Positions 1-50,480 of a DNA stretch of 64,000 nucleotides are shown here, one piece after another; within the stretch, counting starts at the first letter, position 1; every line of letters begins with the position of its first letter. The stretch comes from an uncultured Alphaproteobacteria bacterium (lineage in GTDB: Bacteria > Pseudomonadota > Alphaproteobacteria > Rs-D84): positions 100,441 to 164,440 of the forward strand of contig CATOOF010000002.1 of the NCBI GenBank assembly GCA_951801825.1, given 5' to 3'. Position numbers and translations under genes: made by a program. The notes under the pieces were generated by a model that saw only the letters and a list, made by a program, of their open reading frames with translations, ran no database searches and had not been told where the DNA came from.

Positions 1-32
1 GCGCTTATTTATAGTGATGTTAGAAGCTGTAT

Positions 33-219
33 AAAAAAACCACATGAAGTAAGTTCAGGTGGTTGGAGGCAGAAAACAATACAAGATCGATTGCTCTGCT
101 TATTCAATATATTCGCAGACCTCCAACCAAAGGGTTGGACGTGTTTTACGCCCACGCGGGCGATCTTGTATTATGGAGTTTCTAGCCCCAATTAGTAACA
201 GGATTGAATACCGGTTATG
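33..219 (-). promoter_or_regulatory. Structured leader/attenuator RNA, copy E1B; the gene it controls lies beyond the left window edge
   Basis: Minus strand. TGaTATAAT -10 box at 226-234; HP4 at 122-139; conserved loop at 97-117, 21/21 nt identical to 28148-28168; antiterminator 120-128 pairs with 61-69; long-range pair 161-172/78-89; terminator stem 38-64 with U7 at 33-39. Confidence 0.7.
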
Positions 220-276
220 CGTTCCATTATATCATCGCAGCACGTGATTTCCAGCGAAAATGCCGCAATAAAATAT

Positions 277-442
277 AAAAACCCATCATAGGAAAGACGG
301 GCTGGAGGTTAACACTTTTGCACACTAGGTTGCTCACCGTTTATTTATGTATATCACGGCCCCCAACCCAAAAGGATTGGTCGCCCGCGTGGGCGCCTAG
401 TGAGCGAGGTGTTAAACTCGCATAACGGTCTTTTCCGTTACG
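277..442 (-). promoter_or_regulatory. Structured leader/attenuator RNA, copy E1A (no ORF directly downstream; possible sRNA)
   Basis: HP1 421-442, HP2 404-421, HP3 382-395, HP4 363-380, AU-rich loop hairpin 337-359; long-range pairs 409-415/309-315 and 396-402/323-329; antiterminator 360-369/299-308; terminator 282-301 with U5 at 277-281. Confidence 0.65.
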
Positions 443-448
443 ATATGT

Positions 449-477
449 ACTATATCCTAAAAAAGCGCTAAATGCAA
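449..477 (-). promoter_or_regulatory. sigma70-type promoter for E1A
   Basis: TTGCAT (477-472), 17 bp spacer, TATAGT (454-449); predicted TSS about 442, at the start of HP1. Confidence 0.65.
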
Positions 478-482
478 TCTAG

Positions 483-505
483 AAAAAACGCCCCGTTTGG
501 GGCGT
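483..505 (-). terminator. Intrinsic terminator of ssb
   Basis: acgcccc-aaac-ggggcgt followed by a T-tract on the minus strand, 20 bp after the ssb stop. Confidence 0.8.
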
Positions 506-525
506 CTGGGATAAATTGATTTCCA

Positions 526-990
526 TTAAAACGGAATATCGTCGCCAATTTCTGCAACAGATATTTCTTCGCGCGGGGCGGCGGGGGCGCTTGACGGGGC
601 CGGGCCATATTCGCCGGGCATTGCGCCGTCCATCGATTTTACACCGCTTAAGATTACCATTTGACCCATGAACGGATTCAAAACAACCTCGGTCGTGTAA
701 ACGTCCATTCCCTGCTGATTCTGCCATTTGCGGGTTTTCAGCGCACCTTCTAGATACAGCTTGGTTCCCTTTTGCAGCATGCGTTCGGCAACATCAACCA
801 AATTCGGGTTAAATATTACAACGCGATGCCATTCTGTCTGCTCTTTCTGTTCGCCTGTCTGGCGGTCGCGCCAGCGCTCTGACGTGGCCAGCGAAAAGCT
901 GACTACTTTTTGGCCGCTGTTCATTGTGCGAACCTGTGGGTCTTGACCCACGTTTCCAACCAGTATTACCTTGTTTATGCTGCCTGCCAT
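526..990 (-). CDS. ssb: Single-stranded DNA-binding protein
   Basis: MAGSINKVILVGNVG OB-fold start and acidic C-terminus DDIPF. Start moved to ATG 990 (purine-rich RBS upstream); the 1200 start in the ORF track overlaps rho. Confidence 0.97.
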   Translation of the reverse strand: MAGSINKVILVGNVGQDPQVRTMNSGQKVVSFSLATSERWRDRQTGEQKEQTEWHRVVIFNPNLVDVAERMLQKGTKLYLEGALKTRKWQNQQGMDVYTTEVVLNPFMGQMVILSGVKSMDGAMPGEYGPAPSSAPAAPREEISVAEIGDDIPF

Positions 991-10384: not shown

Positions 10385-10418
10385 CGAAATAACCCGCTAT
10401 ATTCAGCGGGTTATTTCG
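10385..10418. terminator. 14-bp stem hairpin between cas2 and the array (probably bidirectional terminator)
   Basis: cgaaataacccgct-atattc-agcgggttatttcg. Confidence 0.7.
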
Positions 10419-10423
10419 TTTGT

Positions 10424-10723
10424 ATTATATCAATGCCAATTAGGAAAGCAATCTACAACGATAAAGCCAATGCCAAAGAATCAATTGATATTATATCAAT
10501 GCCAATTAGGAAAGCAATCTACAACAGTATCAGCGTACATAGACGAACAACATAAATTATATCAATGCCAATTAGGAAAGCAATCTACAACCTATTTTTA
10601 TTATAGAAACCATTAACAGCTATTATATCAATGCCAATTAGGAAAGCAATCTACAACGTTGAATCGTGAGATATTTACTACTGGTCAATTATATCAATGC
10701 CGATTAGGAAAGCAATCTACAAC
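10424..10723 (-). CRISPR. CRISPR array: 5 repeats of 36 bp and 4 spacers of 30 bp, plus a possible 5th spacer and degenerate repeat to about 10763
   Basis: Repeat (+ strand) attatatcaatgccaattaggaaagcaatctacaac at 10424, 10490, 10556, 10622 and 10688 (last copy has one A>G change). The minus sense GTTGTAG...TGATATAAT matches II-C repeat style and the tracr anti-repeat. Confidence 0.97.
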
Positions 10724-28014: not shown

Positions 28015-28228
28015 TGTCACAAAGTGTTTTTGTGATGGGGTGTGAAGACCTCTGCGTAAGCGTCGGAATATTAAGTCTGTGGTGTTTTGTATACATCGGA
28101 CTTGGCCTTTCGATGACAAGTAATCTCCTGGCCTTGGTCAGGAGGGTTGCGAATATATTGAATAAGCACACGGTTCTTACGATTGTCTTCAACCTCCTGA
28201 CCACCACAAAGCTGGTGGTTTATTCTTT
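28015..28228 (+). promoter_or_regulatory. Structured leader/attenuator RNA, copy E2
   Basis: Promoter TTGTTT (27980), 17 bp, TATAAT (28003); HP1 28017-28035, HP2 28037-28052, HP4 28125-28144, conserved loop 28148-28168; long-range pairs 28043-49/28185-91 and 28055-60/28176-81; antiterminator strand 28190-28202; terminator accacca/tggtggt with T-rich tail. Confidence 0.8.
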
Positions 28229-40225: not shown

Positions 40226-40261
40226 TTGTTCTTGTCTCCTGCTCTGTTCTTTCTGCGAACG

Positions 40262-40472
40262 AAAAAACCACCAAAACATTTGGTGGTCAGGAGGTTGAGA
40301 ACAATCCTTAGAATTGTGCTGTTTATTCTATATACTCACAGCCCTCCTGACCCGGGCCAGGAGTTTGTTTATCGTCGTAATACTAAAACGGGCGCACAAC
40401 GGCGCGCCTTAAGATTCTATTCCGACGCTAAGGCAGAGGTTCTCACACCTCATTCGCGGAACACCCGCGAAC
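40262..40472 (-). promoter_or_regulatory. Structured leader/attenuator RNA, copy E3
   Basis: Promoter TTGTAT (40507-02), 17 bp, TATACT (40484-79); HP1 40453-71; HP4 40344-63; loop hairpin 40319-41; long-range pairs 40439-45/40296-302 and 40428-33/40306-11; terminator accaccaaa/tttggtggt + U5. Confidence 0.8.
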
Positions 40473-50284: not shown

Positions 50285-50480
50285 GAATCCAATGGGAATT
50301 GGGTTCGGGGTCTTTCAAAACCCATACGATACGGCGTGTGTTGCGTCGTAATCCGATTATGCCTGACCGCAAGGTCGGGTGTCTGTTGTTATATAACAGG
50401 CTTGTCCAAAAGCAACAGGGTCATTTATCGTATGATTTTGAAAACGCCCGACCGCCATTCCTTTGGCGGTTTAATTTTAT
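50285..50480 (+). promoter_or_regulatory. Structured leader/attenuator RNA, copy E4 (divergent sequence, same architecture)
   Basis: Promoter TTTACA (50250), 17 bp, TATAAT (50273); HP1 50285-306; HP4 cctgacc-gcaa-ggtcggg; long-range pairs 50313-20/50436-43 and 50324-31/50426-33; antiterminator 50373-82/50444-53; terminator accgcca/tggcggt + T-rich tail. Confidence 0.7.

Follow-up and report, generated by a model that had tools for sequence, protein, structure and literature searches.

At the left edge of a 64,000-nucleotide (nt) stretch of DNA from an uncultured alphaproteobacterium (the window; positions 100441 to 164440 of contig C2), two structured RNA units, E1A and E1B, lie in tandem on the minus strand. 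The genome, here called G000, is 897 kb (∼0.9 Mb) in four contigs, and C2 runs on past the left edge of the window; other G-numbers denote genomes of the same genus, from a set of 257. Both E1A and E1B are diverged members of a multicopy structured RNA family. We consider it likely that they are anciently duplicated, independently promoted, self-terminating leaders whose regulated gene, which encoded an XRE-type regulator, was taken by a deletion, and that they are now orphans, probably still making terminated RNAs.

Two units with separate promoters and terminators

A preliminary description of the window had reported two leaders here on the minus strand, both copies of a family described at position 28015, and our analysis confirms this observation. 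A covariance model of the family 3' domain (R1, built from 19 copies; cutoff, E ≤ 0.01) matched both E1B (33 to 253; 92.2 bits, E = 3.6e-18) and E1A (270 to 477; 53.9 bits, E = 3.4e-9). An exact 21-mer around a loop of E1B is also present at 28148 to 28168, with 0 such matches expected by chance.

Each unit consists of a promoter, a structured RNA, and an intrinsic terminator. The E1A promoter (449 to 477) has a −35 element TTGCAT (477 to 472), a 17-nt spacer, and a −10 element TATAGT (454 to 449), and its position matches that in paralogous units. The E1B promoter (226 to 253) has a −35 element TGGAAA (253 to 248), a 16-nt spacer, and an extended −10 element TGaTATAAT (234 to 226), which scored 10/12 plus TG in a consensus scan. 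The −10 blocks GGATATAGTAC and TGATATAAT and the −35 blocks of both units were invariant in seven of seven orthologous pairs, each from a different species, and the flanks varied; within the E1B promoter, GTGGAAAT was unchanged in the 7 orthologues, as was TGATATAAT. The predicted transcription start sites (TSSs) are at ∼442 for E1A and ∼219 for E1B. With the E1A U-run ending at ∼272 and the U7 tract of E1B ending at 33, the predicted terminated RNAs are ∼170 nt and ∼187 nt, respectively. The E1A U-run lies ∼19 nt from the E1B −35 element, in line with the separation of about 20 bp given in the preliminary description.

The order of parts is the same in both units: first hairpins HP1 and HP2, then segment A (single stranded), the GC-rich HP3, HP4 (strands 1 and 2 paired), HP5 capped by an A/U-rich loop of 15 nt, the short HP6 whose loop is A', strand 3 (CCUCC...), and the terminator (strand 4 plus a U-run). 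Strand 2 (GGGUUGGGGG in E1A, GGUUGGAGG in E1B) has two rival partners, strand 1 in HP4 and strand 3 (CCUCCAGCCC in E1A, CCUCCAACC in E1B), and strand 3 in turn shares sequence with the 5' arm of the terminator hairpin, upstream of the U-run.

In E1A, segment A (CACUAGG, 396 to 402) is complementary to A' (CCUAGUG, 322 to 328) in the loop of HP6 (320 to 333), giving a long-range pseudoknot. HP4 (360 to 380) pairs CCAAUCC of strand 1 with GGGUUGG of strand 2 (363 to 380), strand 2 reaching position 360. HP5 (337 to 359) has a covarying stem, CCGU/ACGG, and a 15-nt loop, GAUAUACAUAAAUAA, that is a class II variant of the family loop. Strand 3 (299 to 308) overlaps the terminator hairpin AGCCCGUC/GAUGGGUU, which extends with its U-run from 270 to 303, so that the two together occupy 270 to 308. 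In E1B, segment A (AUAAUACAAGAUCG, 161 to 174) pairs with A' (CGAUCUUGUAUUGU, within 76 to 94, in the HP6 region) in a duplex of −16.7 kcal/mol. HP4 (120 to 139) pairs UCCAACC with GGUUGGA (122 to 139), strand 2 again reaching further, to 120; HP5 (96 to 118) has a covarying stem, CUGC/GCAG, and the canonical family loop, GAAUAUAUUGAAUAA. Strand 3 (61 to 69) overlaps the terminator AACCAC..GUGGUU plus U7 (33 to 64), the two together occupying 33 to 69. Folding energies were calculated with ViennaRNA and compared with 200 shuffles per unit; E1A folded at −69.8 kcal/mol (z = −6.2) and E1B at −64.3 kcal/mol (z = −5.7), values that 0/200 shuffles equaled in either case.

The divergent loop of E1A had raised the idea of a degenerate copy. 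We rejected it: the identical class II loop is also found in the unit at C2:191716, which precedes a helix-turn-helix (HTH) gene, and similar loops occur in four further units of that type. Two short open reading frames (ORFs) overlap the units, one of 48 amino acids (aa) at 9 to 155 and one of 36 aa at 227 to 337. We also rejected a conserved leader-peptide ORF, since indels of 1 to 2 nt among the orthologues break the frames of both; a leader peptide starting at a UUG in the HP5 loop was rejected as well, because E1A and E1B differ there by a 2-nt indel and indels among the orthologues break the frame.

Both rival pairings and the pseudoknot are conserved by covariation

Covariation was scored on 7 orthologous pairs, from G000 and six other species. 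The terminator fold of E1A was paired in 97.5% of 321 cells, with 13 of 46 pairs changed on both sides; 0/500 shuffles did as well, and slid controls were only 34 to 44% paired. The competing helix between strands 2 and 3 (the 2:3 helix) was paired in 98.6% of cells in E1A (1/10 pairs changed on both sides) and 98.4% in E1B (3/9 pairs). The E1B HP4 score was lower (80%) because MAFFT shifts the register in two species. In G013 and G246, strands 1, 2, and 3 of E1B have changed jointly, to CCAGUC, GGCUGG, and CCAGCC from CCAACC, GGUUGG, and CCAACC, and this joint change therefore supports both rival pairings. The overlap of antiterminator and terminator that had been claimed for each unit is thus borne out: strand 3 is shared by the 2:3 helix and the terminator, and both pairings covary. 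Mutually exclusive antiterminator and terminator pairings with covariation are a mark of intrinsic-terminator attenuators, which each unit resembles in function, the pair in relatives resembling a tandem attenuator.

The pseudoknot showed the strongest exchange. All seven A:A' pairs of E1A were changed on both sides, and 100% of cells were paired in the seven species. The variants are CACUAGG:CCUAGUG in G000, UACCAAG:CUUGGUA in G054 and G260, CGUUAGG:CCUAACG in G251, CGUUUAC:GUAAACG in G112, and CGCUUAU:GUAAGCG in G013; A:A' differs in five of seven species with complementarity kept. Compensatory changes in A:A' of E1B were seen in G251, in G112/G260, and in G013/G246.

The pair precedes an XRE gene in relatives, and this gene is deleted in G000

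Where does the transcription from E1B lead? Because the contig sequence continues beyond the window and was read, the window edge is not the reason for the missing gene. In G000, the E1B terminator is followed by ∼30 nt and then by a bidirectional terminator (AAAAAAUCCCGGCAUUCGCCGGGAUUUUU), beyond which lie the 3' ends of two convergent genes, encoding a small membrane protein and enolase (eno); the bidirectional terminator starts less than 80 nt from that of E1B. No regulated gene was found in the adjoining contig sequence beyond the left edge of the window.

A BLAST search of the 257 genus genomes with window positions 20 to 480 recovered the full-length E1A-E1B pair in six other species, with identities to G000 of 94% (G054), 86% (G251), 79% (G260), 78% (G112), 72% (G013), and 70% (G246). 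The gene order in G251 and G112 is ssb, E1A, E1B, a ribosome-binding site (RBS), a gene for a 117-aa XRE protein, the convergent membrane gene, and eno. G260 likewise has ssb and the pair ahead of this XRE gene. In G013 (contig C3; L051, 2596 to 3861), six to seven family units form a head-to-tail array on one strand, each with a promoter-like box; the array ends in the E1A and E1B orthologues, and two HTH genes follow, including a homologue of the XRE gene. The G246 contig stops directly after the pair. The 117-aa protein is an XRE/Cro-C1-type HTH protein (PF01381, HTH_3, E = 7.5e-11).

The XRE gene is absent in G000 and in its closest relative, G054. Compared with G251, the difference is one clean gap of 379 nt, which runs from just after the terminator U-run to 2 nt beyond the stop codon. 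The scar lies at 23 to 39 on the minus strand, with the junction between UUUUUUUAU and ACAGCUUC, where relatives have the RBS and the 117-codon XRE HTH gene; G054 and two metagenome contigs have exactly the junction of G000. The cognate XRE gene was not found elsewhere in the G000 assembly, in which only XRE paralogues of 46 to 50% identity are left. The pair therefore lies in the 5' untranslated region of a controlled gene in G251, G112, G260, and G013, as it did in the ancestor, and no longer does so in G000 and G054, where that gene is deleted. The polarity of this indel was assigned by parsimony over the seven species, without a tree. The simplest reading of these alignments is one deletion event, in the ancestor shared by G000 and G054, that left a conserved leader of two units without its gene.

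The preliminary description had proposed two switches in series before one gene and had predicted a cysteine (Cys)-rich or membrane protein as the target. The serial arrangement holds in the relatives and fails in G000, where no gene follows in the adjacent contig sequence; the predicted type of target is wrong for this pair, since G251, G112, G260, and G013 have the XRE/Cro-type gene.

Upstream of the pair on the minus strand is ssb (990 to 529), with its terminator at 502 to 483. Among 24 sampled species of the genus, the pair was not found next to ssb, which is followed by unrelated genes and by no unit of the family. As a separate observation, synteny across the genus breaks 3' of ssb, where nearly every species has a different neighbor (L016 to L040, 24 species).

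A dense RNA family in the genome and its genus

With the R1 model, we found 45 matches in G000 (about one per 20 kb), of which E1A and E1B are two. R1 matches were present in 23 of 24 other genomes of the genus, at 2 to 47 copies each, and other families of the order had single matches only. When 185,579 species genomes were scanned for the canonical loop pattern, it occurred in at least 119 stretches, almost all of them from metagenome-assembled genomes of uncultured gut Alphaproteobacteria or "Candidatus Enterousia." Within the window, R1 also matched at 28112 to 28228 (plus strand, 99.8 bits) and 40258 to 40376 (minus strand, 111.2 bits), both before genes for Cys-rich secreted proteins, and weakly at 50345 to 50479 (plus strand, 27.1 bits).

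Single units precede genes for Cys-rich secreted proteins or small HTH proteins, with the RBS 15 to 40 nt past the U-run. Head-to-tail arrays of 2 to 4 units, with a period of 200 to 240 nt, occur at nine loci in G000, so that the tandem at the window edge is a recurrent design. A second tandem pair, at C2:48791-49520 (R1 scores of 52 and 56 bits), precedes a 46 to 50% identical paralogue (C2:49176) of the deleted XRE gene. Tandem leaders seem tied to the XRE regulator subfamily, and Cys-rich genes seem to go with single long-form units.

Three further arrays in G000 have no downstream ORF (C2, ∼62.0 to 62.6 kb; C2, ∼82.0 to 82.6 kb; and C1, ∼281.7 to 282.05 kb). We also noted a hairpin of ∼55 nt, CGGGGCC-UGUUUUACCGUCUUCUCAUCUCCAAUCACAGAAACGGUA-(U)CGGGCCCCG, at the end of four ORF-less arrays or units (L059, ∼1100 to 1205, corresponding to C2 at ∼61.9 kb; C2 at ∼81.9 kb; C2 at ∼280.08 kb; and C1 at ∼282.1 kb). 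This hairpin has no Rfam match and may be another structured RNA or a composite terminator. Apart from the family, the window contains a CRISPR (clustered regularly interspaced short palindromic repeat)-like array at 10404 to 10723, with five 36-nt repeats (ATTATATCAATGCCAATTAGGAAAGCAATCTACAAC) at an exact period of 66 nt and unique 30-nt spacers.

Comparison with known regulatory RNAs

Rfam searches at gathering and permissive thresholds gave no match for window positions 1 to 700 (E ≤ 10) or for the 7 orthologous loci (E ≤ 1). Two known RNAs are nevertheless close to the family. One is sRNA-Xcc1 (RF02221), an 88-nt small RNA (sRNA) of Xanthomonas campestris (PMC2996969). Five paralogous units of G000 align to the full RF02221 model (positions 1 to 87) at 31 to 36 bits (E of 0.002 to 0.02), all below its gathering score of 53 bits, and in these alignments the closing helix of sRNA-Xcc1 is exactly the 2:3 pairing of the family. 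Like sRNA-Xcc1, the family has a closing helix, backed by covariation, around two hairpins (here HP5 and HP6), an A/U-rich first loop of the form AAUA(C/U)A, and then N-CC and a U-run; the 2:3 helix is followed by ACC-U in E1B and by GUC-U in E1A, both of which we counted as this Xcc1-type 3' end. In contrast to sRNA-Xcc1, the family units add a 5' domain of ∼90 nt, a strand 1 that competes for pairing, a promoter of their own, and a pseudoknot that reaches a segment farther upstream, and most of them are 5' leaders of genes, whereas sRNA-Xcc1 stands alone. E1A, E1B, and the six other orthologous pairs did not match the RF02221 model.

The other close relative in architecture is the c4 RNA of phages P1 and P7, which Citron and Schuster reportedly described in 1990 with a1/b1 and a2/b2 sites in the immI operon. 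Control by c4 is a translational block plus Rho, and the 5' end of c4 is made by RNase P. As in c4, a small two-hairpin RNA forms part of an operon leader, the operon encoding a small regulator of the phage Cro/CI-like type, a loop pairs with an upstream site of its own transcript (the a1/b1 type, here with the single loop A'), and the address sequences differ between relatives with complementarity kept. Unlike c4, the HP5 loop is near invariant and carries no address, which leaves A' as the only one; control appears to act through an intrinsic terminator; and there are 45 chromosomal copies instead of one in a prophage. The c4 antisense RNA model of Rfam (RF01695; PMC2864571) gave no match at permissive E values. 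We looked at one candidate for a c4-like a2/b2 site, a 7-nt GAAACCG near the RBS of G251, and rejected it; between G251 and G112 the RBS region (cgggggaaaccgggaAUG) stays constant, but A' does not.

Tandem glycine, thiamine pyrophosphate (TPP), or T-box leaders are terminator/antiterminator attenuators and tandem riboswitches. The present units resemble such attenuators in that the antiterminator strand overlaps the 5' arm of the terminator, making the pairings exclusive, and resemble tandem riboswitches in that two full sensor-plus-terminator units precede one gene at the orthologous loci. They differ from both in having a conserved promoter for each unit, which makes the upstream unit an independent transcription unit; in the c4-like fold that takes the place of an aptamer-like part; in having no known ligand, tRNA, or leader peptide; and, in G000, in the loss of the target gene. 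SreA and SreB of Listeria are riboswitch-derived sRNAs that act in trans; as terminated leaders that are stable small RNAs acting apart from their gene, they offer a model for what the orphaned E1A and E1B might do, with the difference that no trans target of E1A or E1B emerged when the genome was searched for sequences complementary to A, A', or the HP5 loops. Overall, E1A and E1B are closest to sRNA-Xcc1 and phage c4 RNA, yet we filed them in neither Rfam family, because of the absence of an Rfam match and of an RBS target, the added 5' domain, strand 1, terminator, and promoter, and the 45-fold expansion.

Proposed mechanism and alternative explanations

How might each unit switch? In one state (the T fold), A would pair with A' and close a junction containing HP3, HP4 (1:2), and HP5, leaving strand 3 free to form the terminator with strand 4. 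In the other (the R fold), strand 2 would pair with strand 3 and close a two-hairpin core like that of c4 and sRNA-Xcc1, at the expense of the terminator; this c4/Xcc1-like fold would be the ON state. The T fold is the predicted minimum-energy structure (−69.8 kcal/mol for E1A and −64.3 for E1B, compared with −56.7 and −47.4 when the 2:3 helix was forced), a gap that is only approximate because ViennaRNA cannot score the pseudoknotted R fold. With the T fold at the energy minimum, the default outcome would be termination, and read-through would need help. The ON state would be selected by a trigger, probably something that recognizes the near-invariant HP5 loop, or else something that displaces A or strand 1. 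Outside family units, G000 contains no 13-mer complementary to the canonical HP5 loop; since nothing in the genome complements this loop, a protein or small ligand is a likelier trigger than an RNA. In G000, transcription of the orphaned units most likely would still start at the conserved promoters and end at the terminator of each unit, giving the RNAs of ∼170 and ∼187 nt. The earlier suggestion that terminated E1A is released as an sRNA of ∼165 nt is accordingly plausible as a model, and it would apply to E1B too.

The model of the preliminary description, in which two serial switches control a gene just past the window edge, describes the loci of G251, G112, G260, and G013, where the pair stands before the XRE gene; for G000 itself it is scarcely tenable, with 30 nt, the bidirectional terminator, and convergent 3' ends past the edge and the XRE gene missing from the assembly. 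We give equally little credence to the idea that the units are mobile miniature repeats (of the miniature inverted-repeat transposable element [MITE] or repetitive extragenic palindrome [REP] kind) or small-peptide genes instead of functional RNAs. High copy number, tandem clusters, and the overlapping short ORFs would fit such an origin, but the copies are only ∼50 to 70% identical, with divergence that is compensatory and not random; they lack terminal inverted repeats and target duplications; their orientation is fixed, as is their distance to downstream start codons; synteny of the pair extends over five species; and indels break the ORF frames. A c4-type antisense role, with terminated or processed cores acting in trans through the A' loop or segment A, has more in its favor, namely, an architecture like that of c4 and sRNA-Xcc1 and private A/A' addresses that differ in five of seven species. 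It is still improbable: with at most 1 mismatch allowed, A, A', and the HP5 loops had no complements in the genome other than their cis partner and the antisense strand of family units, a 14-nt identity at C1:79245 falls within a coding gene at chance level, the canonical loop has no 13-mer complement outside the family, and there is no downstream a2/b2-like site, the RBS region being the same in G251 and G112 while A' differs. Somewhat less doubtful, although we regard it as unlikely, is that the units are autonomous, RNA-only, self-addressed switches whose RNAs matter in themselves, each with a private A:A' address, and that the orphaned pair persists as sRNA genes. If so, the addresses would be driven apart among paralogues and among species, which would keep ∼45 coexpressed look-alikes from mispairing, and the orphaned pair might be decoys that titrate a shared HP5-loop factor, tuning read-through across a regulon of Cys-rich surface proteins and small HTH regulators.

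Intact orphans or relics

The alternative that deserves the most weight, and that we would still bet against, is that E1A and E1B are decaying relics, without function since the loss of the XRE gene and intact only for lack of time. There is no downstream gene in G000, and the two orphan lineages, G000 and G054, differ at just 8.1% of 4-fold degenerate sites (37/459; rho, ssb, eno, and the membrane gene). The 2:3 helix of E1A in G000 has two G:U pairs where relatives show A:U or G:C. E1B differs between G000 and G054 at 3 of 182 nt, all in loops or the U-run, but regionally low divergence could account for this conservation. On the other side, neither G000 unit has a pair-breaking change. E1A differs between the two genomes in 22 columns (13.7%), concentrated in HP2/A and A'/HP6; the G000 copy carries 19 substitutions relative to G054 and, over ∼100 paired columns, 0 nonstandard pairs, whereas random placement breaks a mean of 8.7 and 0/20,000 simulations matched the observed state. 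Four independent sequences with the orphan configuration show no change in either promoter or either terminator, and the other G000 arrays without a downstream ORF make gene-less units a recurrent condition.

Several points weigh against our preferred reading of the pair as orphaned but working leaders. The TSSs, 3' ends, and switching are model predictions, and the energy gap between the two folds is approximate, as said above. Neutral divergence since the deletion is only ∼8%, a value compatible with intact relics. The neighbors of E1B are as similar between G000 and G054 as E1B itself (spacer, 0/68; membrane gene, 1/215), and its low divergence may reflect a recent recombination tract instead of selection on the RNA. 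For E1A, contig L182 carries a G000-type unit inside G054-type flanks, and the G054-type address is that of the more distant G260; because of this mosaic and this match, the E1A forms are discrete alleles that move by recombination. The compensated state of E1A could therefore have been imported by recombination and not selected in the orphan locus.

In view of these results, we dropped the low divergence of E1B as proof of selection, the adjoining regions being equally conserved, and the idea of gradual compensatory evolution of E1A after the deletion is weakened by two discrete alleles that recombine among strains. The address patches themselves (A4 alignment columns 29 to 54 and 121 to 147) are 40 to 45% diverged between G000 and G054, with 3 differences in the intervening 65 nt; gene conversion patch by patch could lie behind this pattern, or diversifying selection could. 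All told, both units are intact, and their transcription and termination probably continue. That the orphaned RNAs retain a function, for example, by titrating the common factor of the family, is possible, and we see the case as evenly poised.

Significance of the pair and its family

Look-alike RNA switches of this family, which is absent from Rfam, are packed very densely in an uncultured gut lineage with reduced genomes. The tandem arrangement with two promoters is no transient duplication, being conserved in at least seven species, and comparison of the orthologues cleanly supports both rival pairings as well as the pseudoknot, with an address that is swapped wholesale between close relatives. 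The G000 locus is also a natural knockout: two lineages lost the regulated gene and kept both leaders, which separates an RNA-intrinsic role from control in cis. A function of the RNA itself is therefore directly testable by comparing loci of the G251 type, in which the gene is present, with loci of the G000 type, in which it is absent.

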